Notes: generated by a model not told the origin, from the letters alone. DNA of 64,000 nucleotides from a bacterium (GCA_021157815.1 JAGGVT010000096.1:9335-73334); one strand, 5' to 3'; shown: positions 990-58,016, counted from the stretch's first letter. Made by a program: numbers and translations.

Positions 990-1178
990 TCGTGGCGACC
1001 TCGTCCCGGGATACTGCCATTATTCAATATTCATGCCATTTGACACCGGTAACTGCCAGTATTTACTTTGTCATGTTTGTTTTCTTTAATGTATAGTGCT
1101 ATAATTTTTGTGATATACAGGGGTGCGATAGGTCTTCTTGTTTGTCTCCAAATCTCTTAGGAATTAAGGAGTTAACGA

Positions 1179-4100
1179 TGCAAAACTCCATTCGTTTTTT
1201 TATAACAGCAATGGTCATTACAGCCCTGCTTTTTGGTTGTTCAAGCGGTGGGAAAAATCCGGTAATGCCGCGTGATCCCGGTGACGGCAATGCAACCCCG
1301 GAACTACCGCTAGTCAGTGACACCCTTGATGATGTATTGAATCCTGAAAGGAATTTTGATGATCTCCCTGCTGCGGAATTGGGTACAATTCGAAACACAT
1401 TCAACGCTCTAGGCACAATGGGCGCGTACGAGTTATCACTGGACGCTGATTCCATGTCCGCTGAGCTTATTTCAATTCGTACAGCATCGCTTGGTGAGAG
1501 CTTTCTTGTATCAGGCGCCAGTTTCTTCACAGTCCGACCATGCATCGACTGCCTGAGAATTGAATCAATCGAATTGACTCCTGAAAATACAATCCTTGTT
1601 CAATTCGCCGTCAGGCATCCTTTTGAAAAAGGCGTTAAGACCGAACCGGCATCAGCGCTGAATCGTCTTGATCTGGATGTTTTCGACCTGGCGATTGTCA
1701 TAGTGCCATACAGCGCGAGTTACAAATCCTTCCCTCTTCTTGATGTCAACGCATATTCGAAACTATGCCAGAATGTTGACGGTTTCACCAGGGAACTCGC
1801 GGATTTAACTCACAACCCGCATGCCTGCCCCTATTATCTTGTTGTTGACGAGTCTGGTTTGGATGAGCACGACTACAACAGATTCGAAATGGGCACAACG
1901 GATGTACTGGTTCCGGCTTATTTCGCGGCAAATGGCAAGTTCAGGATTTACCTGACAATGGGTTACGGCGCGAGCGCTGATTTCACAACACGGCTTAGCC
2001 CGGTCTATTACAACCCTGAGTTCAACCGCAAATCCGCGTGGAAAGTCGAAGTAATTCCGCCTGAGGGCGAAAACCCTCCCGCATTAGGCAACACGTGGAA
2101 TGAGATTGATACATCAACGACTTACGACGTTACAATAAAAGTATATGACTGGCAGCAAAACGCGACAGTGGCGACCAAATATCCTGATTATGAAAACCGT
2201 GACCATATCTATGCTTCATCAAAAGTCAAACGCGTTACAGCTGAAGTTATGAATATGACAAATGATTTGAGATGGGAGTACACACCGGTAAGCGGCGATG
2301 GTTCCCCTCTTGACCCGTTGATTTACAAAGTGAAAATAGCAAATGAAAAAGGGCTTTCAGCCGGAGAACATTTCGGGCTTGTCAAAGTAAGCGATGAACG
2401 GCATCCGGCGTTAGCCGCCGATGTCGGTACGATTGACTCTCTGGTGCACAGTCCTGATGGAGGTACGCTGTATTGGAACACGATACCTGAATTCGCGACA
2501 TATCAGATTTTCACAGCGACTGTTGTTCCCGGTGACGGCATCACTGTCATACATCCAAACGGCGGTGAAACATGGGGGATTAGCTCATCGCAGACAGTAA
2601 CATGGTCATCGACGGGTACAATCGCAAATGTGAACATCGAACTTTCTCTGGACAGCGGCAGCAATTTCACAGTTCCAATCGCCAATACCGTTCCGAATAC
2701 AGGTTCATTTATCTATAATCCTGTTGGGAATTTCCCCACTGAAAATGCGAGAGTAAGGATTTACAATTCGCTCGACGCTACCATCGTTGATGAATCGGAC
2801 AACGATTTCACAATAGAGGATATCCAGGGGCCAATTCAGGTAATCACGCCAAACGGCGGCGAAATCTGGGCTAAAAACACCCAGCAGAATATTACATGGA
2901 CTGCCGATGCTGATATTACCTATGTCAGGATTTATCTGTCCATGGATTCCGGCCTGAGTTACACAATTCCAATCACCGGTTCAACGCAAAACGATGGAAT
3001 CCATCAGTGGAACATACCGGAAGAAGCCATTGGAATTAATAACAGAATTAAAGTGCAAAAACTCACAGATCCGTTGATTTTCGATGAAAGCGACGCTGAT
3101 TTTCAGGTTGTTTGCCCGGTACTTAATCCGCCAGCGAGTGTTACAGCCTCCGATGGCACATATAATGACAAAGTCTCCGTTTACTGGGATGAAGTCGCAG
3201 GAGCATCCGGATATGATATCTACCGCGATAATGTACTGCAGGTTGCCAATCATCCTGCATTATCATGGGAGGATGTCGCTGTTGTTCCCGGAACCATTTA
3301 CAATTATCAGATTGCATCAATAAACTCCTGCGGAGCCGGCCTAAAGGGGCCCGCCGACCCGGGTGAACCCGGAAATGCGTGTGTTTTACCCACATCGCCA
3401 ACCGGAGTAAGCGCGACTGATGGCAATTTCCCCGATAAGGTAACAGTTACCTGGAACGCCGTGGCAGGTGTAACCGGATACAACATCTACCGCGATTCCA
3501 TTTTGCAGCAGGGCAATTACACATTGCTTACATGGGATGACACATCAGTAACTCCGGGAGTGATATACAACTACCAGGTTGAAGCGTTTAACGGTTGCGG
3601 AACAAGCGCCAAATCTCCCGCCGACCCGGGCGAGTCCGGACATGCGTGTGTTCTGCCGGATTTCCCAACCGGTGTGGACGCGACTGATGACGCTTTTCCC
3701 GACAGGGTTACCGTTTCATGGAACGTTGTGATAGGCGCGACCGGTTACGATATCTACCGCGACAGCGGACTTGTGCAGGATGATTTCGTTGGATTAACAT
3801 GGGATGACATGACTGTAGTTCCGGGAACAGTTTATTACTACCAGGTTGAAGCTGTGAATACCTGCGGTAACGGGGCAATTGCTCCACCTGATCCCGGCGA
3901 ACCCGGAAACGCGTGCGTTATGCCATTACCGCCAACCGGAGTAAGCGCGACTGACGGTAATTTCCCGGACAAGGTAACTGTTTCATGGAATGCTGCAGTC
4001 GGCGCAACCGGATACAATATATACCGCGATTCTGTTGTGCAGCTGGCAAACCATCCCGGCATAACATGGGATGACATGACAGTAACTCCGGGAGTGGTTT

Positions 4101-6268
4101 ACAACTACCAGGTTGAAACAGTTAACGGCTGCGGAACAAGCGCCCTGGCTCCCGTTGCCCCCGGTGAACCCGGCAATGCGTGCGTTCTCCCTGTCGCACC
4201 GGCGTGGATTACAGCATCGGATGGCACTTTCACAGACAGAATTCAAATCGACTGGGCGCTTGTTGCGGGAGCGACAGGATATAATATCTATAGGGATTTG
4301 AATCCGGTGCCTGTCGCAACGAATGTAGCCGCTCCAACATGGGATGATTCCGCTGTAAACATCTGTGAAAATCACGATTATGAGGCTTCCGCCGTTTCAG
4401 CATGCGGCGAGGGGCCCAAATCCGCCAGCGACACGGGTTATTCAGAGGAATTCCCTGCCGCTCCGACAGGTGTGAATGCAACCGATGACGCTTTTCCTGA
4501 CAAAGTTACCGTCTCATGGAACGCGGTAACTGGAGCGACAAGTTACGACATTTACCGCGATACAATACTTGTTCAGGATGATTTTGCGGGTTTGACATGG
4601 GATGACACGACTGTAACTCCGGGAACTATTTATAATTACCAGGTTGAAGCGGTCAACGCCTGCGGCAATGGGCCTATTGCGCCGGGAGCGCCGGGCGAAC
4701 CCGGCAACGCTTGTGTTTTACCAACAGACCCAACTGGAGTCGATGCGACTGACGGCACTTTCCCGGACAAGGTAACAGTATCATGGAACGCCGTTGGGGG
4801 AGCGACTGGATATAACATCTATAGGGATAGCGGACTGGTGCAGGCTAATCACCCCGGTATTACATGGGATGACACGACAGCAGTTCCTCCTGTTGTTTAC
4901 AACTACCAGGTTGAAGCGATAAACGGCTGCGGTGTCAGCAATAAAGCTCCTGCCGACCCGGGTGAACCCGGCAATGCATGCGAACTTCCGGATACTCCAA
5001 CCGGACTTGCAGCATCAGACGGTACTCACACTGACAGAGTTCAGCTCAGTTGGACCGCCGCTGCTGGCGCGCTGTCTTACGACATCATCCGAAATTCAGG
5101 TTTCCTGATTAATGTACCGGGAATAACCCATGACGACATGACCGCCACGGCGGGAGTGATTTACACGTACGAGGTTGAAGCGGTAAACGCATGCGGCAAC
5201 AGCCCGGCTTCAGCAGCGGATACCGGTTACGCTTTCGCTTGCGCGGCTGATACAAACGATACATGTGGAACAGCTGATCAAATGTTTATGAACAATTTCG
5301 TAACGGGACACTCCGTATCAGGATGCGTTGACATGATTGATGAGGACTGGTTTTATGTGTATGCTCCTCCAAATGGAATTACAGCGGCAAGTACAATAGA
5401 CATCACAATGCCATCCGGCACGCTGGATATTGAAGTTTATGGAATCGACCCGGGCGGAACATGCCCCGGAGCGCTGATTACATCGCAAACCAACATTGGA
5501 ACAACAACAGTTAATGTTCCAGCAAGTTCGTTAAGCCTTCTCTACATTAAACTGATAGGCAACTCCGGAGAGGTCAGTTACACAATGGATTTGGATCTTG
5601 CCCCATGGATAACAAATATGCCTGTTCAGGTGTGTGTCGCGACCGATGACGGCACACCCGGCGGCAACTGGCCATACGACGGCACGAATTACCTTGATCT
5701 TGCACGACTTAACCAGATGATAACATGGGCTAATAATTTCTGGCATCAATATGGTTATAACCTCAATTGGGATGGCTCCACTGTAACAATCATGGATTGG
5801 ATCTATTACAATCTGGATAATGGCGCGGAAGTCAACGCAATGCACACCGCTTATCATACTAACAATCTGCTAACTCTCTACTGGGTCAACCAGCTTGATC
5901 CACCGCATAATACCGCGTACTGCAGGTGTTATACTCCTGAATCAGCGCATAATGTAAATAATGTCTTCACCGCCTACAGTCCGAATGTGTGGACATGGGA
6001 ATCGGTTGTTGAACATGAGAACGGTCATGCGATGGCTTATTATTTCGATGAATATCTATATAATGCCGGCGGATGCGCCTGCGGAGACAATGGCTGTCTC
6101 GGCTATGTTCCGTGGCTCTACTGGTGCGATAATGGCTGTTACAACGGCAACCTGATGTATTACCATCAGATGGGCTGGACATGGGATTTGTTTAACCTTG
6201 TTAACGGCCAATGGCAGCAGATAAATGAATTTAACTTTAACAATCCAACCAATTATCCGTGGTTCTGA
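1179..6268 (+). CDS. Giant surface lipoprotein: family N-terminal module, 2 beta-sandwich repeats, 8 tandem Fn3-like repeats, PPC domain and C-terminal HEXXH-containing region
   Basis: AGGAG RBS then ATG at 1179. Signal peptide ending in lipobox LLFGCSSGG. N-terminal motifs RPCIDC, RHPFEKG, NRLDLDVFDL, EFNRKSAWKVEV, YDWQQN are shared with paralogs. Repeats with GYNIYRD/YNYQVEA/NGCG occur 8 times. DEDWFYVY...LDIEVYG looks like a pre-peptidase C-terminal (PPC) domain. HENGH is present near the C-terminus. Confidence 0.9.
3110..5230 (+). repeat. Coding tandem repeat, about 270-285 bp period x8 (Fn3-like units), high DNA identity between units
   Basis: Repeated DNA blocks such as ccaaccggagtaagcgcgactga..ggatacaa(c/t)at(c/a)taccgcgat recur at about 3400, 3660, 3940, 4470 and 4740. 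The protein shows 8 units ending in Y(D/N)IYRD. Confidence 0.8.
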
Positions 6269-6286: not shown

Positions 6287-6883
6287 ATGAAAAAACTAAT
6301 TTATATCTCCATCATGGCATGTTTTGTAGTGGGGTTTTTCGCAATGCCGGCAAGCGCGTTAAGCCACAACGCCGAGAAATTCCTTCAGGCATGCACAGCA
6401 TTGGATTCTGTCTTCCCGCCTCGAAACTGGGATAAATACGATCTTCGGGACGCCGCGCTGGAAGTTCTCGATGAAATCGAAGACGGCACTTTCAACGCCT
6501 GGCCAACCGAGCCAACCGATTTCTGCCTCAAAACGCTCGGATACACACAATTCCCCGAGGACGTTGACAGGATTATCGCTTACGAGGATGACCTGACATA
6601 TTCAGTCCTGCGCTCATTAAAAGGATTTCCATCCGTAAAAGCGATTGAATGCCATTACAGATGGCTTGACAACGAGATTATGCCCAAGCGTGAACTGGCA
6701 TTTCAGGGTCTTGCGGATATCGATTTCAACAAGCTAAAGAAACCCGATAAGTGGCGCAGCGATGTCCTTGCAAAGCTTATAAACGCAAGGCAAAAAGAGA
6801 AAGTTGACTGGCTGATTAAGATTCTGGATAAATCAATTACAAAGGTCGAATCTTTCAAGATTAAGAAAGCGCCTAAGAAGTAG
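6287..6883 (+). CDS. hypothetical secreted protein
   Basis: GGGAGG RBS. N-terminal signal peptide MKKLIYISIMACFVVGFFAMPASALS. No recognisable domain. Confidence 0.7.
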   Translation: MKKLIYISIMACFVVGFFAMPASALSHNAEKFLQACTALDSVFPPRNWDKYDLRDAALEVLDEIEDGTFNAWPTEPTDFCLKTLGYTQFPEDVDRIIAYEDDLTYSVLRSLKGFPSVKAIECHYRWLDNEIMPKRELAFQGLADIDFNKLKKPDKWRSDVLAKLINARQKEKVDWLIKILDKSITKVESFKIKKAPKK

Positions 6884-14765: not shown

Positions 14766-15257
14766 TCAATCCCCAACGCTATCACCGCTGAATATCAGAG
14801 AGATGATTTTCCATTTCCCTCGAATTTTCATAAGCGAAAATATATCAACGCCAGTTTGATGATTTGTTGAATCGCGATAATCATAATCACATACCACTGT
14901 CGCCATGCTGCTGCGATGGATCTCTATTTTTCGATTCGTCAGTTTGTCGGAAATAAATATCTCTTCCTTGAACATTTCCTTTGTTTCTTTCACCCATTCG
15001 GCAAGGCTCATTATATCCTGTTTGGTGTGGTTATCGAAATCGATTCCAATAACGGCACGATAATGGAACAGATTTTGGACATCTGTCATTTTCTTCGATG
15101 AATAAGCTTCCTGGAATTCATCGATGACAGCATCGACCGCATCGGTTTCATCAGCGGCAATCGCACTCCCCGATTCAGTTGCGGATGGGATAATGCATCC
15201 AAGCATAAATCCCACCATGACAAAAAGAATCGCGGCAATAATATTTTGCTTTTTCAT
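14766..15257 (-). CDS. hypothetical lipoprotein, NTF2/SnoaL-like fold suspected
   Basis: Signal peptide with lipobox FMLGCIIPS; about 130-aa mature domain of the size and pattern of DUF4440/SnoaL-like proteins (weak). Confidence 0.55.
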   Translation of the reverse strand: MKKQNIIAAILFVMVGFMLGCIIPSATESGSAIAADETDAVDAVIDEFQEAYSSKKMTDVQNLFHYRAVIGIDFDNHTKQDIMSLAEWVKETKEMFKEEIFISDKLTNRKIEIHRSSMATVVCDYDYRDSTNHQTGVDIFSLMKIRGKWKIISLIFSGDSVGD

Positions 15258-15401
15258 TTTTGCACCCTCTCACAAATTAATCACTGTGATTATAACGCAT
15301 TTGGTGAAATGAAAAAGCTATTCAATTGGCATAACTCCTCAAACCATGAAAAGACCCCGCATATCGCGGGGTCTTGGATTTACAAATAAGCCAGATTGCT
15401 T

Positions 15402-16382
15402 TTACTCAATGATCGGTATTTCTTCTTTGGATATTAAATATTTCTCGGGAATAATCAGGTCTTTGAGGTTTTCCTGTGTGAGAATAGGTTTTGATGTATC
15501 GAGTAGATCAAACTCACATGAGAACATCGATACCATATCGGACAAATTGTTTCCCCCTCCGTGATAAATGCAGTGCTTGATATACTCATTTCCGTTGATA
15601 TTCAAATAAACGTAGTTGGATTCATCATCTTTACCCCACTTAAACTGAACATTGGATTTGTCAACCAGTTTGGCAAAACTATCAAAGTTTTCACCGATGA
15701 CGAAATACTGCGGGCCGAGTGTTTCAATAAATGATGATGGAAGAACACCGTTATCAACGTAGAAATTCCCTGAATTCGTGAACAGGATATCGGTGAGCTG
15801 ACCAAACATAGCTAGAAGTTTTTTCTCATCCTCATCGAGTATTTTAGTTATGCTTGTGTTAACACCAATAAATATAGATGATTCCAAATCACTTTCTGAT
15901 GGAAATACATATTTAAGATTTCGCCACATGTCCTGATCGTCTGATTCATCTTGCCCGAAATACAAATAGTTAAATTGCGCGGAAGACCCGGAAAGCCGCT
16001 TATACCCTACCTCACCAAAATTCTGTTCGTTAACTATAACATCATTACTATTATCCAAAATCTGTACTGGATTTCCTGTTGACAGGTTTCTTGGCCAAAA
16101 TAATATGTGGCCGCTTGATACAAGAGTGTTAAATGAATCCGGCATGTTATCGTACGTTTTGAAATAACCTATACTGGCTTTTCTAAATATGTCATACGAA
16201 CTTAGCTGTATGGCAGATAGGGATTTGTCGTTTTCCTCAATCGGGAATGACCAATTATCAGAAATTGAGGTATCTCGTTCCTGTGTCTGTTTGTTTGAAT
16301 TGTCAATGACAATATCAGTTTTCTGGTTGGATGAACATCCGAATAGAACAGCAACCATTATTAATAAAACAAAAAATCTCAT
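15402..16382 (-). CDS. hypothetical lipoprotein, paralog of 38340..39272
   Basis: Lipobox LFGCSSNQ; shares SG(H/L)I(L/V)(F/V)WP.N..TGNPV motif with the 38340..39272 protein. Confidence 0.7.
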   Translation of the reverse strand: MRFFVLLIMVAVLFGCSSNQKTDIVIDNSNKQTQERDTSISDNWSFPIEENDKSLSAIQLSSYDIFRKASIGYFKTYDNMPDSFNTLVSSGHILFWPRNLSTGNPVQILDNSNDVIVNEQNFGEVGYKRLSGSSAQFNYLYFGQDESDDQDMWRNLKYVFPSESDLESSIFIGVNTSITKILDEDEKKLLAMFGQLTDILFTNSGNFYVDNGVLPSSFIETLGPQYFVIGENFDSFAKLVDKSNVQFKWGKDDESNYVYLNINGNEYIKHCIYHGGGNNLSDMVSMFSCEFDLLDTSKPILTQENLKDLIIPEKYLISKEEIPIIE

Positions 16383-16807: not shown

Positions 16808-19800
16808 TTACACATGCGCTGAAGTATTATCAGCGGATAGAAGCATGTCGTATTTGTGGCGGAATTTTTCACGCCATTTCATCTGGAAAATCTTTCTCTC
16901 CAGCGTGCCAAGCACCTCTTTGCTCTTTGCGATGTGCTTATTTCCGGAATCCTCTTCACCGTGTTCGTTAAGGAAGACACCGTAACGGTAATAGAACAGC
17001 ACGATGAAAGTCCGGGGACTTTTATCTGATTTTTCATTGATTGCATTTTCAATCTGAGTATAAAGCGGTTTGGCGGAATCGATATCGCCTCTTTGCGCTA
17101 AAACCAGCGCATGCTCAAGCATAAATGCCAGTTTCAACCAGCTTCCTGCTTGAACCGTCGGAGATTCAAGCCCCTTTTTAATATTCTCTTCCGCCTTTTC
17201 CAAATCGCCAAGCCGGCTTGCAAGTTTGGCATTTATAAGATAATTGAACGGAATGCCGCGCTCGTATCCAATGTCTTTTTTTATTTCGTATGCCAGAAGG
17301 GAATAATTCTCCGCAAGTTTGTATTTACCTTGTTCCATCTGGGCAAACGCGATATTCGTCAGGGTTTCACATTCACCCTGCCTGTCGCCCAGAGCTCTGA
17401 ATACCATAAGCGCGCGTTCGTAATAATCCATCGATTCCCTGTACTCACCAAGTTCGAAAAGAACATCCGCCATTGTAACGTGCACTTTTGCCTGCACTCT
17501 TGTATCAGCAAGGCGTGCCTGGGAGGATATTATTTCTCTCAGGAGAATCATCGCCCTTTCGAATTCACCCTCCTCTGTGTAGATAATAGCCATGTTCCCA
17601 ATCGGAAGAACCTCACCCTGGATATCATCAATCTCCCTGAAAAGCCGAATGCTTCTTTCAAGCCATTCCTTTGCCAGCGGAATGTCGCCCAGTATTTTAT
17701 ATATCAATCCCATATTGTTATAGATACGCGCCATGCCCTCACGATCATTCAATGTTTCGCATATTTCACGTGATTTGCCAAGAACATCGATTGCCTTGTC
17801 AAAATCACCCTGAAAGCAGAAATTAATGCTCAGCTCCTTAAGGATAAGGGCGACTTCTCTGTCATCCCCGGTTTCCTTGAGAACGTCAAGCCCGTTTTTG
17901 AAATAATCAATGCTTGAACGGTAATCGGCAATCGACCGGTAGTATTCACCAAGAGCTTTCAACGCCTGCCCTTCGAGATGCGTATCACGAGAGAGGATAG
18001 CGCGATTATAGGCGCTATATGTATTTTCACGATAACTATCGGCATCGCCGGATTGCCTTGCCAACGCGCCTTTCAGAAGATAGAACCTGCCGAGAAGATG
18101 TTCATCCTTGCCTGTTTTATTCTCCAACGCTTTCATGCCGCACTCGCACCATTCCTCCGCCTGTGATTTCAGGTTGATTTTTTGCGCATATCGTGCCGCT
18201 TTCAGGTAATATTCCGCGACATCGGCTGTCTGTCCGGCTTTCTCAAGATGTTCCGCAATTTTGGCTGCAAGTTTCTGGTCATGATGAATATTCGAACGCA
18301 GCACTTCAGCCGCCGCGATATGTTTCTCCCTTTTCACATCATCCGGAATACTGGAATAAACAACCTTGCAAAGCATATTTGGATTGAAAGTGTACGTGTC
18401 GTCCGTTCGGACAAACACATGGTGTTCATCCGCAAGGCTTTTGACAACCTTCTCCACACTTGCAGATGATGATCCGGAAAGCGCCGCGAGATTATCGATT
18501 ATGAATTCGTTCCCGAGTATGGATGCCCACTTCAACGCGTCCTGCATGTTATCCGGAAGCATCTCCATTCTCTCCAGCATTAGAGATTGCACCGAACGCG
18601 GGTTATCCTGAACATCAATATCGGAACTCAACCTTACGGAACCTCCGTCCCTGATAATCTGTTTCTGGTTTTCCAAAGATTTCAGCATTTCAACCAGATA
18701 GAAAGGATTTCCACCCATAGTTGCGTGCAGCATTTCAGCCAGCCTGTGGGCATCCTCAGGATATTCCCATGAGTACTTTGAAAGCAGAAGTTCATGCGTT
18801 TGAGACAGATCTAAATCTCTGATTTCATAAAGCAGGTAATTGGCGCGCCTTGAGAATTCCTCCATAAGACTGCTCATATCACCTTCATTTGCCATATTGA
18901 AAGTTACAACAATCATCACAGGATATTTTGCCGTGGCTATTGAGATATCACGCAAAAGTTGCAATGACTGGGAATCAACATAGTTGACATCATCAATACA
19001 GATAATCAACTTGTGCTTGAGAGAAAGATGCTTGAATCCCGTCGCGATGAGTTTCTGGTAATTAATCTCATCCATCATCTGGGTCGGTTCCTTCACATCC
19101 CCGACATTTGGAGTGATAAGGGCAACTAACGGCGAAACAAGCAAAGGTATTTCAGGGAACATATCGGTAAGGAAATTCTTGTAATGCTCAACTTCGCTAT
19201 CCCCGAGGTATGATCGCCACAATCGTTTTGTCGTTTCAAATGGGCGGTTTTTATCTCCCGGATACGCGGTTGTTCTCATGATGCAGATATCGCTTTCATC
19301 AGCCGCGATTTGTTGAAGCAATTCCAGGCTCCATCGCGATTTCCCAAGTCCGGTATCCGCTTTCAATGCGAGAATCCTGCCTAATCCCTCATCCAGCCCG
19401 TTTTTCAGCCAACGCTTTAGTTCATCAATTTCATCAGCGCCGACCAACACTATGTCATTGCTGTTTTTAAAATTTTTCAGATACTGCACCACATCCTGCC
19501 CGGCTGGTTGGTCCTTGCCTCTCGACTGGAACCATTCCACGCCAAGGAAGAATTTACGCTCCAGCTCCTCCGCTTTCACAAGCAGATCGTTCAGTTCATC
19601 GAGTGTTGGTGGATGCGGAGCGGCGATCTCATCCGCGAGATTCCCTACATCACTCAGGAACAAAGAGACATTATCATCATCGCTTCTTTCCTGCTCCTTG
19701 AAAGCGTCGATTATTTGCCACAAAACCTTGCCGACACTCTTTCTATCACGTTTGAAATCCGCTTCCGATGAAATCAGGTTGGCAAGTCCGAAATCGATTA

Positions 19801-20323
19801 CTTTCATGAGGTGGCGCGATGTTGAAACGTCATCGTACATCACGTTCTTCACATGCAAATCGCCATGAATCAGATTGTTGCGTTTCAATGCAATCAGCAC
19901 ATGAAGAAGCTGAATGATTGTTACGATTATCATGCGGCCATCTATCGGCTGTTTCTCTTCAATGTACTCCTGCAGCGTTTTGCCATATACGCGTTCCCAG
20001 ACAATGAAAGGGACGAACACTTTTTCACCGTCTATTTCACAATTTTCCTCGCCGAAATCTGTAACGGAAGCAATGTACGGGCACCCGCGCACCTTCATCG
20101 CGCGTTTTGCCTCCTGAACCCACTCGGGACCCAGAGGAATTTTAACTCCGCCTATCTCAGTGTTAATAACCTTGACAACAACCTCTCCCTCGAGAAGTTC
20201 ATCGTAGGCCAGATAGGCTCGAGCCATTAAACCATGGCCGATTTCCTCAAGAAGCACATAACGCTCCTTGATTTTTAAACCGGCAAGATTAGTCGCACTT
20301 TCTGTCGTATCAGTTATCTGCAT
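16808..20323 (-). CDS. Ser/Thr protein kinase fused to STAND-type P-loop NTPase and TPR repeats (PknK/MalT-like architecture)
   Basis: Kinase subdomains VVVKVIN, HGDLHVKNVMY, IDFGLANL. P-loop KADTGLGKS. Long C-terminal TPR-like region with repeated A..Y......Y..A pattern. Confidence 0.9.
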   Translation of the reverse strand: MQITDTTESATNLAGLKIKERYVLLEEIGHGLMARAYLAYDELLEGEVVVKVINTEIGGVKIPLGPEWVQEAKRAMKVRGCPYIASVTDFGEENCEIDGEKVFVPFIVWERVYGKTLQEYIEEKQPIDGRMIIVTIIQLLHVLIALKRNNLIHGDLHVKNVMYDDVSTSRHLMKVIDFGLANLISSEADFKRDRKSVGKVLWQIIDAFKEQERSDDDNVSLFLSDVGNLADEIAAPHPPTLDELNDLLVKAEELERKFFLGVEWFQSRGKDQPAGQDVVQYLKNFKNSNDIVLVGADEIDELKRWLKNGLDEGLGRILALKADTGLGKSRWSLELLQQIAADESDICIMRTTAYPGDKNRPFETTKRLWRSYLGDSEVEHYKNFLTDMFPEIPLLVSPLVALITPNVGDVKEPTQMMDEINYQKLIATGFKHLSLKHKLIICIDDVNYVDSQSLQLLRDISIATAKYPVMIVVTFNMANEGDMSSLMEEFSRRANYLLYEIRDLDLSQTHELLLSKYSWEYPEDAHRLAEMLHATMGGNPFYLVEMLKSLENQKQIIRDGGSVRLSSDIDVQDNPRSVQSLMLERMEMLPDNMQDALKWASILGNEFIIDNLAALSGSSSASVEKVVKSLADEHHVFVRTDDTYTFNPNMLCKVVYSSIPDDVKREKHIAAAEVLRSNIHHDQKLAAKIAEHLEKAGQTADVAEYYLKAARYAQKINLKSQAEEWCECGMKALENKTGKDEHLLGRFYLLKGALARQSGDADSYRENTYSAYNRAILSRDTHLEGQALKALGEYYRSIADYRSSIDYFKNGLDVLKETGDDREVALILKELSINFCFQGDFDKAIDVLGKSREICETLNDREGMARIYNNMGLIYKILGDIPLAKEWLERSIRLFREIDDIQGEVLPIGNMAIIYTEEGEFERAMILLREIISSQARLADTRVQAKVHVTMADVLFELGEYRESMDYYERALMVFRALGDRQGECETLTNIAFAQMEQGKYKLAENYSLLAYEIKKDIGYERGIPFNYLINAKLASRLGDLEKAEENIKKGLESPTVQAGSWLKLAFMLEHALVLAQRGDIDSAKPLYTQIENAINEKSDKSPRTFIVLFYYRYGVFLNEHGEEDSGNKHIAKSKEVLGTLERKIFQMKWREKFRHKYDMLLSADNTSAHV

Positions 20324-44093: not shown

Positions 44094-46670
44094 TTAATCA
44101 ATTACAACGTACCCATCCTCGAATGAATATCCAAACTCCCTGTTACTGAATATTACCACCGTTACGCCGGGTGCAAGTATTCTCGCGCCGGATATATCCG
44201 ATTCTGTTCCTATCTCGAGAAGCAGATTGTTATGTGAAATCTCAATTGCTTCTATTGTTTCAAGCGATGAGAAAATCAACATGCCGTTGTATTCCAGGTG
44301 CGATGCGTTAATCAGAAGGACATCGAAATCGGGATTGTTTGCACGGACAACATGCGCCAAATCACCCTGGAATTTGTATTTCCCAAACGTGGCCATCTTA
44401 TTGGAGTTGCCCGTTTCGAGAAACACATCCGTTCTGTCAGGCAGTTCGATTTCGTAGCCATAGTTACGCCTGTGTGCCCTATCAATCCAGTCAGTTTCAA
44501 GCGTTTTGATTTCAATATCTGGAGCGTCTTTTCCCTCGTACGGATACAGCAAAACCTGGTATTGAACAAACGGCATCCGCGCCTGATGCAGTGAGATATA
44601 CGGCGCGTCATCCTTAACGCCATCAGCCGGTGTCACCATAGGCCCGGTTTTTTCATGGATCTCAACCTCATCCGCATTAAGCGGAATAAGCGCAAGATTG
44701 GCATCATCATTGGAAGTGTCGATGCGTTTTGTTTTCTTATCAATCTTAAGTTCAGTCGGCTGGAAATGCGCAAGCCAGTCGAATGTATGATATCCGCTGG
44801 TCTGGAAACTCGCTTGATAGTACGCCGGTCCCGGCAGGAAATCGGTTATTATCCAATAGCCGGGTTTGACAAAAATCGCACGTCTATTGTGAAGCACGCC
44901 AATCCAGCGGTAGCCATCGCTCCAAGCATCCGTGAAATCGAATCTCTCGCCAGTCCACCATTGCTCGACACGGTTGTTAGTGCATTTTCGCTGGCTTCTG
45001 GAATCGACCCAAACTGTATTATGCGCGATTGTTTGCTTGTACCATCGCTTGTTTATATCCGCTTCATAAGGCCCGGTACGGCCGCATTCCGTACAAATCG
45101 GTTTGCCAAACGCGTGGATATTAAAGTTGCCGAAATCAGGATGCGAATGCCACGCCTCATCCCAGCCGAAATCAAGGAACATATACGATGAATTTTTATC
45201 CCATGAATTGCGCATCACAACCCAGTCAGAATCGGGAAGATGAATTGATTTATATGGCGGGATCTGCGCCTTGGTTTTATTGTAGGCGTCAAGCGCTTGT
45301 GCGGTATTCTCGCACTGATCATTTGCTATCCTTTCAACATCATCCGGGTACCACTCAGAAAATTCTTTCAAGATTGGATTCGCAAATTCAAGCGCGCCTT
45401 CGATTATCGTGCCCTTGATTAGATAACCGTCCGGACCAATTCCGCCATCGCCGACAGGAACACCATTGCCTGCAGGCGGCATTATCTTGACCATGGATAA
45501 ATACATCGATTCCCATTTTCTATAACAATCCTCCGGTATCTCTCTTCCCGTTTTGCGAATGATATTTACAGTCCTGCGATACTGGTCAATAACACCGGTC
45601 GCATAGTTGACCGAATTCTCGATATGAGTGCCGTCATCGTAGGTATCGGTAATCATGTGCTCCTTGAAAAGTTCCCATGAAGGCTCAATCCAATTTTCTG
45701 AATCGTTGAACTCCGGGAAATACGCTCCGATTTTAATCAGCGCCTCGCACTGGCATGTCTGCCAGTTGCCCGGCATAAAGACATCGTTGCACTTTTCCAG
45801 AAATTGCGCATGTTCAAGAATCGATTTGTAGAAATTAATATTTCTTTCCTTGTCGAGATTCAATTCACCTGTTTTTGCAAGCCATCGTTCTGTGTCGCAC
45901 ATATGAATTGCGGTACCGCCTGCGCCAAGCGTTCGCCAGTATGGCAGCCAGACAAAACCGATATACGCTTTCGGCCGTTGAGCGGGCGGACGGTACGTTT
46001 CATACCAGTGAGAGAACATCTCAAGCCACGCATCGGCGTATTTCCTGTCATTTGTGTGTATTGCCGCGCGTTCGAGAACACGCATCAACCCAAAAAGTGA
46101 ATACCTTTTTCCGGGAACGCATGCTGGGAAATCGGGATCTTTGATAATCTCGTCAGCGTCTATTACCGCGGCTTCACCCGCTTCTTTTGTAATCGGACAA
46201 AGCTTCAACTGATTCGGCCTTGGGCGTTCAGACTGATATATCAAATATTCATCCCGCGCTTTTGTGAAATCACGCGAATCAACCGCTGCCTTCACTTTCT
46301 CAAGTCCCTGATGGTTCAAATCCACGGTGGAAAAAAAATCTTTATCCGTCATTATTGGACAGGTGGGCGTGTAGTCGTATTCCGCTTTGTATCGCTCGAC
46401 AAAAGTATTTGTATAGCGGTATTTGCTAAGGAGTTTGACATCCAAATTGACATCCGAATCAAATTCAATTGACGGGTCATCCACGTACGTTATCTCCGAT
46501 GGCTCATACGGAGAAATTGCCTCCGGTGGAACAGGCACCTGCGCCATGTCAACATACGCCATCGTGTTGGGAACTTCATTCTCCCGTGAAGATTTATCAT
46601 TATCGGAATCCACTGGGCAACCACAAAAAATGAAGGATGCCATTATTAGTAGAAATGCAAATCGTGCCAT
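44094..46670 (-). CDS. heparinase II/III-like polysaccharide lyase family protein (secreted), paralog 1
   Basis: Signal/lipobox FIFCGC. WDEAWHSHPDFGNFNIHAFG matches the H.H.D...F Hepar_II_III motif. Large alpha-rich N-domain with NWQT. Start reassigned to ATG at 46670 (AGGAG RBS), 11 bp after the upstream gene stop. Confidence 0.75.
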   Translation of the reverse strand: MARFAFLLIMASFIFCGCPVDSDNDKSSRENEVPNTMAYVDMAQVPVPPEAISPYEPSEITYVDDPSIEFDSDVNLDVKLLSKYRYTNTFVERYKAEYDYTPTCPIMTDKDFFSTVDLNHQGLEKVKAAVDSRDFTKARDEYLIYQSERPRPNQLKLCPITKEAGEAAVIDADEIIKDPDFPACVPGKRYSLFGLMRVLERAAIHTNDRKYADAWLEMFSHWYETYRPPAQRPKAYIGFVWLPYWRTLGAGGTAIHMCDTERWLAKTGELNLDKERNINFYKSILEHAQFLEKCNDVFMPGNWQTCQCEALIKIGAYFPEFNDSENWIEPSWELFKEHMITDTYDDGTHIENSVNYATGVIDQYRRTVNIIRKTGREIPEDCYRKWESMYLSMVKIMPPAGNGVPVGDGGIGPDGYLIKGTIIEGALEFANPILKEFSEWYPDDVERIANDQCENTAQALDAYNKTKAQIPPYKSIHLPDSDWVVMRNSWDKNSSYMFLDFGWDEAWHSHPDFGNFNIHAFGKPICTECGRTGPYEADINKRWYKQTIAHNTVWVDSRSQRKCTNNRVEQWWTGERFDFTDAWSDGYRWIGVLHNRRAIFVKPGYWIITDFLPGPAYYQASFQTSGYHTFDWLAHFQPTELKIDKKTKRIDTSNDDANLALIPLNADEVEIHEKTGPMVTPADGVKDDAPYISLHQARMPFVQYQVLLYPYEGKDAPDIEIKTLETDWIDRAHRRNYGYEIELPDRTDVFLETGNSNKMATFGKYKFQGDLAHVVRANNPDFDVLLINASHLEYNGMLIFSSLETIEAIEISHNNLLLEIGTESDISGARILAPGVTVVIFSNREFGYSFEDGYVVID

Positions 46671-46680
46671 TGTTTTTCTC

Positions 46681-49233
46681 CTAGTTAATGATAATGAACC
46701 CATCTTGCATGTTAACTTTTTCCTGTTCGCCATTGATTATAACCTTGTTCACACTACCAGCAACTATCTTGACACCTGATAAATCGGATTCGCTTGTTAT
46801 GCTCATTTTGGCTCCATTAACACTTATTTCAAGCGCTTCAATTGCTGCAGGAGCTGAGAATATAAGGATATCATCAATCATTAGATAATCGGCATTAAGT
46901 AGAAGAAAGACTGTTTCGGATTTTTCAATGTCACTAAGAAGCGCGATATCGCCGCGGAATTCATAATCGCCGAATTTAACTTTCTTTGTTGCATCGCCGG
47001 ATTCCATGAAAATATCTTTTCGGTTTGAGAATGATATTTCATAACCAACATTCTGCCTGCTGACACGGTCAGCGAAATCCGTTTCAAGCGGCGTGATTTC
47101 AATTTCAGGCGCGACTTTTCCCTCGTAAGGAACAAGCAAAACCTGATACTGCTTGAACGCCAATCCCTCCTGATGCAGGGAAATGTAAGGAGTTTCTACC
47201 ATTCCATCCGTTGTTGACATCGGGCCTTTGCTTTTATTAACGACAATGTCCTCATGGTTAAGGGGGACAAGCGCGATATTGGCGTCAGGATTCAGCGTAT
47301 CAATACGCTTTGTTTTACTGTCAATATTAAGTTGAGTCGGCTGGAAATGCGCAAGCCAGTCGAATTCATGATATCCGCTGGTCTGGAAACTGGTTCCGTA
47401 ATAGGACGGTCCCGGCAGGAAATCCGTGATAATCCAATAGTCGGGTTTTGAAAAAATTACTCGACGGTTATGCTGAACGCCAATCCAGCGGTAGCCATCG
47501 CTCCAAGCGTCAGTGTAATCAAAATCATCCGATGTCCACCACTGCTTCAGAGTGTTAGTCGTGCATTTGCGCATGCTTCGCGAATCAATCATGACAGTAT
47601 TATGCGCGATAGTCTGCTTGTACCATCTTTTTGATACGTCAGCCTCGTAAGAACCAGTCCTGCCACATTCAGTGCAGATTGGTTTTCCGAATGCCCAAAT
47701 ATCGAACGAGCCAAAATCGGGATGCGAATGCCACGCCTCATCCCAGCCGAAATCGAAAAACATATACGGCGATTTCTCATCCCACGATTCACGCATAACT
47801 GACCAGCCTGTGTCGGGCAGGAGAACAGAGGTAAATGACGGCTCTTCTGATTTGATTTTGTTGTATGCCGCAAGCACTTCATCAGTATTGTCAAACTGCT
47901 CGTTCGCTGTTTTGATAACATCATCGGGATATCGCTCGGCGAAATATTTCATTGCAGGGTCATTAAATTCAAGTGCGCCTTTTATAATCGCGCGTTTGGT
48001 GAAACTGCCATCCGCTCCGATACCGCTATCACCGCATGGAACATAATTTCCCGTCGGCGGAACTATCTTAACAGCCCATAAATACATGGTTTTCCACTTT
48101 CGGTAGAATTCATCGGGGATAAACATCCCGAGTTTTCGTACGAGCCTGACTACAGTGCGGTATTCATCCATAACACCGGTAGCGTAACCGACTGAGTTTT
48201 CGCAGTGAGTGCCGTCGTTATAGGTTTCCTTTACCATGTGCTGTTGCGACATTTTCCACGCGTGTTCGCACCAGAATTGCGATTTTTTAAACGATGGGAA
48301 ATAACCGCCGATTTTCATAATCCCCTCGCACTGGGCGGTCTGCCAGTTGCTGGGCATGAATACATCATTGCATATATAGAGATATTCAGCATGTTCCAGA
48401 ACTGATTTATACAAATTGAATATTTTATCTTTGCACAATTTAGGGTTATCAATCTGCGAAAGCCATCGTTCAGTTTCAGGCAGGCTTCTAGCCGGGCCTG
48501 AGGCACCAAGTGTACGCCAATATGGCATCCAGATAAAGGAGATATACGTTTTGGGCCGCTGAGCTGGCGGGCGATATGTTTCATACCAGTGGTTGTACAT
48601 TTCAAGCCACGCTTCAGCATATTTAATATCATCCGTGTGGATATACGCCCGTTCGAGATAGTACATCATTCCCCATAATGAGAAGTACATCCCCGGCCTG
48701 CAATCCGGGAATTTGGGGTCTTTCATAATCTCATCCGCTTTCTCTACAGCAGCCTCGCCTGCTTCTTTTGTAACAACCCGTTCTTTAAGCTGGTATTTTT
48801 TATCGCGCTTCGCCTGATATGACAAATACTCATCCCGCGCCTTTTGGAAATCACCAGACGTAACCGCCGCCTTAACTTTCTCAAGGCCTGGATAGTCCAG
48901 ATTAACCGCCTCGAAAAATTCCCTGTCCGACATCTCCGGCTTGGTGGGAGTATAGCCGTATTTCGCTTTCCACTTCGCCACAAATTCGTTGGTGTAGCGA
49001 TACTTGCTGAAAAGTTTTACATCCATGTTCCAGTCGGAATCGAGTTCAATCAACGGCTCATCCACGTAGGTGATTTCCGTTGGTTCAAATGGGGACAATG
49101 CCTCCGGTGGAACAGCTACAATCTGCCCGCCATCGGCATAATCCATCGTGTAGTGAACATCCTTTTCCCTTGATAGTGAAAATCCGAAGAAAATAATCGA
49201 TGCAATAAAAAGGGCTATAGCTGTTCGAGTCAT
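46681..49233 (-). CDS. heparinase II/III-like polysaccharide lyase family protein (secreted), paralog 2
   Basis: Signal peptide; WDEAWHSHPDFGSFDIWAFG; about 60% identical to paralog 1 along the full length. Confidence 0.75.
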   Translation of the reverse strand: MTRTAIALFIASIIFFGFSLSREKDVHYTMDYADGGQIVAVPPEALSPFEPTEITYVDEPLIELDSDWNMDVKLFSKYRYTNEFVAKWKAKYGYTPTKPEMSDREFFEAVNLDYPGLEKVKAAVTSGDFQKARDEYLSYQAKRDKKYQLKERVVTKEAGEAAVEKADEIMKDPKFPDCRPGMYFSLWGMMYYLERAYIHTDDIKYAEAWLEMYNHWYETYRPPAQRPKTYISFIWMPYWRTLGASGPARSLPETERWLSQIDNPKLCKDKIFNLYKSVLEHAEYLYICNDVFMPSNWQTAQCEGIMKIGGYFPSFKKSQFWCEHAWKMSQQHMVKETYNDGTHCENSVGYATGVMDEYRTVVRLVRKLGMFIPDEFYRKWKTMYLWAVKIVPPTGNYVPCGDSGIGADGSFTKRAIIKGALEFNDPAMKYFAERYPDDVIKTANEQFDNTDEVLAAYNKIKSEEPSFTSVLLPDTGWSVMRESWDEKSPYMFFDFGWDEAWHSHPDFGSFDIWAFGKPICTECGRTGSYEADVSKRWYKQTIAHNTVMIDSRSMRKCTTNTLKQWWTSDDFDYTDAWSDGYRWIGVQHNRRVIFSKPDYWIITDFLPGPSYYGTSFQTSGYHEFDWLAHFQPTQLNIDSKTKRIDTLNPDANIALVPLNHEDIVVNKSKGPMSTTDGMVETPYISLHQEGLAFKQYQVLLVPYEGKVAPEIEITPLETDFADRVSRQNVGYEISFSNRKDIFMESGDATKKVKFGDYEFRGDIALLSDIEKSETVFLLLNADYLMIDDILIFSAPAAIEALEISVNGAKMSITSESDLSGVKIVAGSVNKVIINGEQEKVNMQDGFIIIN

Positions 49234-57907: not shown

Positions 57908-58016
57908 AACCTGCTAACCTGCTAACTTACTAACCTGCTAACTTACTAACCTGCTAACTTACTAACTTACTAACCTGCTAACTTACTAACTTACTAACCT
58001 GCTAACTTATTAACCT
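57908..58016. repeat. 8-bp tandem repeat (CTAACYTR)n, about 13 units, overlapping the stop codon of 58010..60520
   Basis: Same unit and same TTTTCCAAC junction as the arrays at 23.8 kb and 53.6 kb. Confidence 0.85.

Follow-up and report, generated by a model that had tools for sequence, protein, structure and literature searches.

A lipoprotein gene and its modules

The window, by which we mean the whole 64,000-nucleotide stretch of bacterial DNA that was analysed, carries near its beginning a single ORF (1142-6268, plus strand) that spans an entire region of long protein repeats, with its frame intact over 5.1 kb. While the ORF lister begins this gene at a TTG codon (1142) and reports 1708 aa, the ATG at 1178 is the likely true start, giving a 1696-aa product, because an AAGGAG lies 7 nt upstream of it and MQNSIRFFITAMVITALLFG-C follows it. 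The product is identical to P0001 (NCBI MCD6217411.1), annotated as "hypothetical protein J7L05_06085 [bacterium]". Its N-terminus, MQNSIRFFITAMVITALLFG-CSSGG, contains the lipobox L-x-[GA]-C of bacterial lipoproteins, and as read from this sequence the protein is a predicted lipid-anchored lipoprotein. Residues L17, L18, G20, C21, and S22 are invariant (alignment A3), and with GCSxGG as the consensus across 30 paralogues (alignment A2) the lipobox is kept family-wide. A scan against NCBIfam returned no family for the lipoprotein. The modules follow one another in the order lipobox, N-terminal domain, two Kre9-like units, eight Fn3 units, PPC-like sandwich, and metzincin domain, and the features outside the Fn3 array are listed here.

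1178..6268, plus strand: lipoprotein gene, 1696 aa
1178..1240, plus strand: signal peptide and lipobox (LLFG-C), as read from the sequence, with the codon of the lipidated Cys at 1238-1240
1238..2551, plus strand: N-terminal all-beta domain of ~440 aa, function unassigned, common to a large paralogue family
2552..2845, plus strand: Kre9/KNH-like Ig unit 1 (Pfam PF10342), PNGGE motif at 2555
2846..3112, plus strand: Kre9/KNH-like Ig unit 2 (Pfam PF10342), PNGGE motif at 2849
5246..5605, plus strand: beta-sandwich resembling PPC or collagen-binding domains, holding a D.DW motif
5606..6265, plus strand: predicted metzincin-fold zinc peptidase domain, with HENGH at 6014-6028, a candidate third-ligand Asp at 6047-6049, and a Cys cluster from 6074
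6287..6883, plus strand: conserved gene for a secreted partner of ~200 aa, directly 3' of the protease gene

The two beta-sandwich units with PNGGE motifs that a preliminary description had placed ahead of the repeats are indeed present as Ig units of the Kre9/KNH type, and the two-unit segment at 2546-3112 matches PF10342 at 29.8 bits against a cut-off of 24.6, in two matched stretches. Toward the end of the N-terminal domain, seven synonymous differences between the window and locus L003 are clustered at 2440-2515, and no donor for this patch was found among the window or the fetched loci. The partner gene takes the same place after family genes in loci L001, L004, L005, L048 (twice), L050, and L052. 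Distinct partner genes are 46-67% identical, the value of 94% in L001 being that of a close orthologue, and the product matched no Pfam or NCBIfam family.

Structure prediction modelled the C-terminal segment as a metzincin catalytic fold together with the PPC-like sandwich, from which we infer a metzincin-fold zinc peptidase with predicted activity. Among 19 sequences the HExxH is invariant, the Gly at +3 is replaced variously (A, G, S, or T at this position), +6 is variable, and an invariant Asp stands at +7. One Met, 36 residues past this Asp (M304, alignment A1), is likewise invariant and is a candidate for the Met-turn of metzincins beneath the zinc site; it lies where model confidence is low (pLDDT 45-59). 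The segment 5600-6265 found no match even at E<=1 in a Pfam-A scan that would cover any M64 model, and motif-level matches to the M64-like PDB chains 4df9 and 3p1v were obtained at E 0.04-0.15. The likeness to M64 consists of the metzincin fold in both (Thomasclavelia ramosa IgA protease, PDB 9qa6; Bacteroides lipoproteins 4df9/3p1v), of the HExxH with Asp at +7 and Tyr at +9 (HENGHAMAYYFDEY in the present protein versus HEFGHSFGGLADEY), and of an invariant Cys cluster just downstream, at the place of the M64 second zinc site. In M64, this second site is Cys3-Glu and is bridged by the D-x-Y loop, and the protease is joined to a tail of stalk-like domains (bioRxiv 10.1101/2024.12.31.630911). 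In contrast, the Glu of DEY varies here (E/Q/V/T), and the M64 domain order is unlike that of the present protein. Identity to the pappalysin/adamalysin metzincins (ulilysin 2cki, mirolysin 6r7u, atrolysin C 1dth) is just 10-14%, and their canonical HExxHxxGxxH/D spacing appears not to be kept, with +3 and +6 variable and the Asp at +7. Overall, with its M64-type zinc motif, the C-terminal domain has the look of a metzincin family not yet described.

The eight Fn3 units and their number in relatives

Eight Fn3 units stand head to tail between the Kre9-like units and the PPC-like sandwich, as had been proposed, and the whole protein matches Pfam fn3 (PF00041) at E=2.5e-22 and 79.3 bits against a cut-off of 25, in four matched stretches. 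Their period, first given as 270-285 bp, is 267 bp, with one unit of 264 bp. The letters a to e below denote unit types shared with relatives.

3113..3379, plus strand: Fn3 unit 1 (type a), orthologue of unit 1 in the five-unit relatives (bootstrap 98 with unit 1 of P0002)
3380..3646, plus strand: Fn3 unit 2, extra copy of the unit-7 (d) type, within a c/d clade of 100% support
3647..3913, plus strand: Fn3 unit 3, extra copy of the unit-6 (c) type, 75% identical to unit 6 in DNA and 76% in protein
3914..4180, plus strand: Fn3 unit 4, extra copy of the unit-7 (d) type, DNA identity 78% to unit 2 and 72% to unit 7
4181..4447, plus strand: Fn3 unit 5 (type b), the most divergent unit, sharing 53-57% DNA identity with the others
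4448..4711, plus strand: Fn3 unit 6 (type c), 264 bp, orthologue of unit 3 of P0002 (74%)
4712..4978, plus strand: Fn3 unit 7 (type d), orthologue of unit 4 of P0002 (69%)
4979..5245, plus strand: Fn3 unit 8 (type e), orthologue of the last unit in P0006 and P0002 (bootstrap 82-98)

When four units were scanned singly against Pfam fn3, units 2, 8, and 1 matched at E values of 1.5e-5, 6e-5, and 0.011, respectively, and unit 5 gave no match; the family unit HMM matches unit 5 at E 4e-39. Residues 4-76 of unit 7 align full-length to the FN3con consensus design (4u3h) with the Fn3 core positions present, namely the strand B Trp, the strand C Tyr, and the strand F tyrosine corner Y.Y.V.A.N..G, and an alignment of all eight units shows the same core motifs. 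The motif Y[DN]IYRD, noted at the outset, was found in seven of the eight, and motifs like YNYQVEA and NGCG were found in forms that vary from unit to unit. In all arrays of 19 proteins, cysteines recur at a spacing of 72 / 13-17 residues, a pattern consistent with disulfide-bonded domains outside the cytoplasm.

At the DNA level the units had been described as near-identical, with 70% identity named as the threshold. Their pairwise DNA identity is in fact 53-78% (mean 62%), with 23 of the 28 pairs below 70%, and the longest exact word common to any two of them is 25 nt; protein identity is 34-76% (mean 53%). Codon-shuffled units give a baseline DNA identity of 48.3% +/- 1.5% (maximum 53%), such that units 5 and 8 are barely above the DNA background. 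Identity between units at four-fold degenerate sites is 0.43 overall versus 0.25 by chance, and the best residual synonymous similarity (0.69) is that of units 2 and 4. Tandem Repeats Finder reports only 3350-4186, as 3.1 copies with 69% matches.

Copy number proved constant among close relatives, where variation had been anticipated: the 90% cluster comprises seven independently assembled relatives at 87-99.9% protein identity, and every one has eight units and zero array indels. As these seven are assembly consensuses, mostly short-read, low-frequency length variants within populations are possible. One of them is 99.84% DNA-identical to the window, with just one difference inside the array. 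Comparison of the window with the 88%-identical lineage gave unit DNA identities of 82-91% on the diagonal and at most 78% off it, with bootstrap values of 96-100 for each orthologous unit pair, and this one-to-one orthology between lineages means that concerted evolution is absent. The dN/dS of the array is 0.148, alongside 0.137 for the N-terminal domain and 0.156/0.166 for the C-terminal domains; the units and the catalytic domain are under equally strong purifying selection. Synonymous divergence in units 6-7 is two- to three-fold above that of the rest of the gene. Gene conversion between units was considered for the differences between the window and L001, and was rejected as an explanation, since in a per-unit comparison with every possible donor unit, units 6-7 included, no donor stood out. 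A metagenome scan with the full protein returned no match, and one with the close-relative alignment returned 10 loci, of which one was a full-length family member, the known five-unit P0002 contig; no further close relatives were added by these scans.

Across the wider family, relatives with the same N- and C-terminal domains have 0-8 Fn3 units and 0-2 Kre9 units. Three paralogues in tandem on one contig have 5, 1, and 4 Fn3 units, and a sister MAG has one 8-unit and one 1-unit paralogue. In other family members the units of an array have diverged further (DNA identity 49-62%, shared words no longer than 16 nt), the present array being the most internally similar within the family (up to 78% DNA identity, with the 25-nt word).

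Units 2-4, additional copies of the 6/7 type, have no counterpart in the five-unit orthologues; for unit 2 in particular, none was found in P0002, P0114, or P0006. Unit 3 forms a clade with unit 6 and P0002 unit 3 (bootstrap 89), unit 4 groups with unit 7 (bootstrap 68), and unit 5 is orthologous to the second units of P0002 and P0006 (bootstrap 100). The probable ancestral order of the long-stalk orthologues is a-b-c-d-e, and the present lineage has a further d-c-d block (units 2-4) between a and b. Because unit 6 groups with P0002 unit 3 to the exclusion of unit 3 at just 65% bootstrap, the three-unit difference may be a gain here or a loss in the five-unit lineages. Judged from these sequences, length varies between paralogues and species and is not hypervariable within populations, so that the idea of a variable stalk length holds for the family at large (0-8 units) and fails for the close relatives, which are fixed at eight.

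A probable spacer between anchor and peptidase, and other readings

We consider it probable that the eight Fn3 units form a stalk of fixed length, and that whole domains were duplicated or lost to give the different stalk lengths of paralogues and species. With the two Kre9-like Ig units ahead of them, the Fn3 units would act as a spacer inside a lipid-anchored extracytoplasmic protein, parting the anchor-proximal N-terminal domain from the distal PPC-like sandwich and metzincin-fold peptidase. An Fn3 domain is ~3.5 nm long, and the reach would come to ~28 nm for the eight Fn3 units and ~35 nm for all ten Ig-like domains. Rigidity and extension of the array are assumed here from Fn3 arrays generally, and the stalk geometry, reach, surface exposure, and protease activity are predicted ones. 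The array probably originated by whole-domain duplication followed by divergence of the copies, which would now evolve singly under purifying selection; with diverged copies evolving independently in this manner, stalk length would be stable within a species.

The equal constraint on the units and the catalytic domain is also predicted by a ligand-binding role, in which the Fn3 units would be multivalent modules tethering the protease to a polymer, such as a matrix of glycan or protein, and avidity instead of reach would be what copy number tunes. Beyond an array dN/dS as low as in the catalytic domain, this reading can draw on the motifs DG.FPDKVTVSW, TWDD, and Y.YQVEA.N.CG, which are strongly kept across units and homologues, and on a neighbourhood of heparinase II/III-like lyases, a clostripain-family peptidase, and BNR-repeat (sialidase-like) paralogues. 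However, the conserved positions are mostly those of the canonical Fn3 core in the FN3con alignment, family members keep both end domains with just 0-2 units, and with the PPC/collagen-binding-like sandwich a dedicated module of binding type is already adjacent to the protease. No binding site was identified, and we regard such a role as rather unlikely.

Considerably less credible is a contingency locus of the periscope type, whose similar units would recombine or slip such that strains differ in stalk length. The layout resembles one, in that an array of folded domains sits between the anchor and a functional module and the unit number differs in more distant relatives, and this array is the family's most self-similar, as seen in the 78% DNA identity, 25-nt word, and 0.69 synonymous similarity of its closest units (2 and 4 for the last). 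Efficient homologous recombination in E. coli needs roughly at least 25-50 nt of perfect identity and drops steeply with divergence. The mean unit identity of 62%, with most pairs (23/28) below 70%, argues against this reading, as do the eight units without an array indel in 7/7 relatives at 87-99.9% identity, the strict one-to-one unit orthology, and a per-unit donor comparison that found no gene-conversion signature. Slipped-strand contingency loci have short identical units of 1-9 bp, whereas the period here is 267 bp with diverged copies, and Tandem Repeats Finder found no short-unit tract within the gene. The periscope class itself consists of long, highly identical DNA repeats, those of Sgo_0707 being 82-100% protein-identical (PMC8201768). 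This reading is largely refuted, and with it falls the earlier proposal that the array is a current substrate for slippage or recombination; both outcomes named beforehand as counting against that proposal, low DNA identity between units and a fixed copy number, were observed at the relevant scale.

Lastly, although repeats commonly cause metagenome mis-assembly, a mis-joined or collapsed array is extremely improbable: the units differ by 22-47% in DNA, which allows unambiguous read placement, the reading frame is unbroken over 5.1 kb, and seven sequences from different sources, on contigs that differ in length, including the one that is 99.84% DNA-identical, have the same eight units.

Wider meaning and comparison with known systems

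No solved structure is related to the N-terminal domain, which has expanded massively in a single uncultured lineage, with ~67 ORFs carrying it in the sister MAG and five in the window. Among the window ORFs that were scanned, none proved to be a taxonomic marker gene. We tentatively raise the possibility, which we hold to be more doubtful than the fixed-length stalk, that the gene is part of a system of modular surface proteins in an unclassified diderm. Here one lipid-anchored N-terminal domain would carry interchangeable effectors (metzincin, BNR propellers, LVIVD/DUF5122 repeats), and the reach of the metzincin would be stepped by paralogues of 0-8 units, each paired with a conserved secreted protein of ~200 aa, which could act as its cognate inhibitor or chaperone. 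If such a system is real, stalk length would be a hard-wired design parameter diversified through paralogy. The same end domains combined with 0-8 Fn3 units also provide a natural series on spacer length versus a tethered protease. The negative result has its own value, as a long protein repeat that is regular to the eye proves to be an ordinary case of diverged multidomain architecture and not a recombination hotspot.

Among known systems, the array resembles the Fn3 linkers of bacterial enzymes (Clostridium thermocellum CbhA, PDB 3pe9/3pdd; Fn3 of chitinases and glycosidases), in that a secreted hydrolase has, between its other modules, tandem units of ~89 aa that match Pfam fn3. Neighbouring domains of multidomain proteins are usually diverged, and adjacent units here have 36-66% protein identity, again as in such linkers. 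The two differ in copy number and setting (eight in a lipoprotein here versus one to three in a free enzyme), in the cargo (a metzincin-fold peptidase here, a glycoside hydrolase there), and in the conserved Cys pair of each unit, with its 72 / 13-17 spacing.

The other comparison is with the Periscope Proteins (SasG, Rib, Sgo_0707/SHIRT, CdrA), in which repeat number changes even between similar strains (Whelan et al. 2021, PMC8201768). Shared with them are a rod of folded domains between the cell anchor and a distal domain, the rod shape being a predicted one here, and a number of stalk domains that differs among family members (0-8 here). In contrast, the present repeats are 53-78% DNA-identical versus 82-100% protein identity in SHIRT, all seven related assemblies have the same eight of them, the protein is anchored by an N-terminal lipid rather than a C-terminal LPXTG, and the distal module is a protease instead of an adhesin. 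Where Periscope Proteins change length from strain to strain, the length diversity of this family is held in separate paralogues.

Anatomy of the Fn3-array gene

One ORF covers the whole region (1142-6268, + strand), and its start codon is likely the ATG at 1178, which has AAGGAG 7 nt upstream and a lipobox signal peptide after it (MQNSIRFFITAMVITALLFG-CSSGG). The 1696-aa product is listed at NCBI, with identical sequence, as MCD6217411.1, 'hypothetical protein J7L05_06085 [bacterium]'. Motif anchors, together with a repeat search that allowed no gaps, gave the following units:

2552-3112, + strand: two PNGGE units, 5' of the Fn3 array (Pfam Kre9_KNH, above cut-off)
3113-5245, + strand: eight head-to-tail Fn3 units, starting at 3113, 3380, 3647, 3914, 4181, 4448, 4712 and 4979

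The array has a period of 267 bp, with unit 6 at 264 bp. The whole protein matches Pfam fn3 with an E value of 2.5e-22, and FN3con, an Fn3 consensus design, aligns end to end with unit 7, with matching Trp, Tyr and tyrosine-corner positions. Motifs, Pfam fn3 and Kre9_KNH thus bear out the anatomy of the preliminary description, i.e., eight units preceded by two PNGGE units. A Cys spacing of 72 and then 13-17 residues recurs throughout every Fn3 array of the family (window 3113-5266; members P0002-P0019). This periodicity, as read from sequence, implies that each unit, or each inter-unit junction, has one conserved disulfide, and fits disulfide-bonded extracytoplasmic domains, possibly with stiffened junctions.

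Divergence and number of the Fn3 units

The units had been described as near-identical in DNA, which they are not: unit pairs share 53-78% DNA identity (mean 62%), and only 5 of the 28 (2-4, 2-7, 3-4, 3-6 and 4-7) reach 70%. With the same aligner, codon-shuffled units give a baseline of 48.3% +/- 1.5%, and unrelated 267-bp pieces from the same gene give 48.7%; the DNA-level resemblance of units 5 and 8 to other units is marginal. The longest exact word common to any two units is 25 nt, and Tandem Repeats Finder reports 3.1 copies with 69% matches. Protein identity is 34-76% across pairs and 36-66% between neighbours. Identity at four-fold degenerate sites is 0.43 overall (chance 0.25) and 0.69 in the best pair. 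Judging from these identities, the duplications are old, with synonymous sites short of full saturation. Arrays of other family members are more diverged still (49-62% DNA identity, shared words of at most 16 nt).

The 90%-identity cluster of the window protein has seven members, drawn from NCBI, JGI, ENA and Logan on contigs of unequal size. All seven (87-99.9% identical to the window protein) have eight units, with no array indels among them. A relative 99.84% identical over the gene (L003) has one substitution within the array, and in the 88.5%-identical lineage L001 the sole indel falls 3' of it. Window units share 82-91% DNA identity with their positional counterparts in L001 and at most 78% with other units, and each orthologous pair has a bootstrap of 96-100. 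Since each unit is closest to its counterpart, the arrays have not evolved in concert after the two lineages split; tests for donor-unit signatures of gene conversion in the array found none. Ordinary purifying selection maintains the units, with a dN/dS of 0.148 for the array against 0.137 for the N-terminal domain and 0.156/0.166 for the C-terminal domains.

Two local patterns were also seen. Units 6-7 (4448-4978) have a synonymous divergence from L001 of ~0.85, compared with 0.24-0.41 in the remaining units and 0.22-0.62 in the remaining domains; none of the units explains this as a donor, and the excess may be an allelic recombination import. Between the window and L003, seven of the eight differences over the 5.1-kb gene, all seven synonymous, sit in one 76-bp patch (2440-2515) that looks like a short recombination tract, for which the window and the relatives' loci examined hold no donor.

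Across the wider family, the 19 distinct homologues with the same N-terminal domain and C-terminal domain pair carry 8, 7, 7, 7, 6, 5, 5, 4, 4, 3, 2, 2, 2, 2, 1, 1, 1, 1 and 1 Fn3 units and 0-2 Kre9 units, and one additional representative has zero Fn3 units. Paralogues of unequal length occur together: three tandem genes on a single 64-kb contig have 5, 1 and 4 units, and a sister MAG has both 8-unit and 1-unit copies. The suggestion of a variable stalk length therefore holds across the family (0-8 units), in an evolutionary sense only, but not among close relatives (7/7 fixed at eight).

In the five-unit orthologues P0002 and P0006, units 1-5 are counterparts of window units 1, 5, 6, 7 and 8. 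Window units 2, 3 and 4 have no counterparts there, a MAFFT alignment leaves a 267-residue gap exactly at their position, and they fall with units 6 and 7 in one clade (support 100%). By parsimony over the two five-unit lineages, the window lineage more likely gained this block, made of copies of the unit 7, 6 and 7 types. Loss elsewhere is still compatible with the unit tree, because the grouping of unit 6 with P0002 unit 3, excluding unit 3, has only 65% bootstrap.

C-terminal domains, candidate partner gene and host

In a structure model (pLDDT 80.5), the C-terminal 340 residues form two domains, of which the one at 5606-6265 has a metzincin fold. Residues invariant in the 19 homologues are both His and the Glu of HExxH, Asp at +7, Tyr at +9, four Cys further downstream and a single Met. 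Peptidase M64 (HEFGHSFGGLADEY) has this zinc-motif spacing; its Asp serves as third zinc ligand, and its D-x-Y loop forms the bridge to a second zinc site of the Cys3-Glu type. HExxH-x6-D-x-Y with four invariant Cys resembles M64 rather than the canonical metzincin HExxHxxGxxH. The match to 4df9 is at motif level (E 0.04), no Pfam or NCBIfam model matches the catalytic domain, and it may represent an undescribed metzincin family.

Directly 3' of seven of the eight metzincin-bearing family genes examined, sometimes with a few-base overlap, lies a gene for a ~190-203-aa signal-peptide protein:

6287-6883, + strand: window
15094-15690: L001
3014-3625: L005
14239-14850: L048
21772-22383: L048, second gene
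5244-5825: L050
6528-7100: L052

Proteins of distinct genes are 46-67% identical and match no Pfam or NCBIfam family; a cognate inhibitor, a chaperone or a partner are possible roles.

The host is probably diderm, given LpxK, Glycos_transf_N (Kdo transferase family) and CTP_transf_3 (CMP-Kdo synthase family) genes on the syntenic contig. Three heparinase II/III-like lyase genes (44094-49233 and 58010-60520, both - strand; two of the three adjacent) and a clostripain-family peptidase (23914-25971) suggest a polymer-degrading heterotroph. Just 5' of the Fn3-array gene, a Cys-rich ORF (198-926, + strand) has a weak, sub-cut-off choice-of-anchor J match (E 1.7e-5); at the orthologous position, L001, L002 and L003 have a gene of 511-686 aa without a family match. 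A 1171-aa protein (16808-20323, - strand) has an N-terminal Ser/Thr kinase domain and a long TPR region. The N-terminal domain of the Fn3-array protein occurs in only one other GTDB representative genome, 'Nanoarchaeota archaeon MM_PC_MetaG.mb.142' (L012, L037), whose lipobox-bearing, bacterial-type genes suggest that these short contigs are mis-binned bacterial DNA.

Probable stalk role and comparison with known systems

We consider it likely that the array is a fixed-length stalk. The ten Ig-like domains would form an extended spacer keeping the PPC-plus-peptidase head apart from the lipid-anchored N-terminal domain. An Fn3 domain is ~3.5 nm long, from which the reach would be roughly 30-35 nm. 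That the Fn3 units instead serve in binding or avidity is unlikely. A periscope or contingency mechanism, in which the array would change length, is very improbable against diverged repeats fixed at eight in close relatives, and we give almost no credence to the eight-unit array being an assembly artefact.

In essence, the preliminary description proposed a Periscope Protein (PMC8201768). The defining features of that class are long DNA repeats of high identity and a repeat number that shifts even between similar strains; SHIRT repeats, for instance, share 82-100% protein identity (PMC8201768). Neither defining feature is found here, so the window protein is not a periscope protein, and what the two have in common is the general stalk logic. 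Within large proteins, neighbouring domains typically share <50% identity (PMC8201768); the window units, at 36-66% between neighbours, have an intermediate value that fits old duplications. The surrounding family is worth separate attention for its expanded N-terminal domain, possibly undescribed M64-like metzincin, conserved partner gene and series of stalk lengths. The closest known kind to the array itself is the diverged Fn3 linker arrays of bacterial extracellular enzymes.
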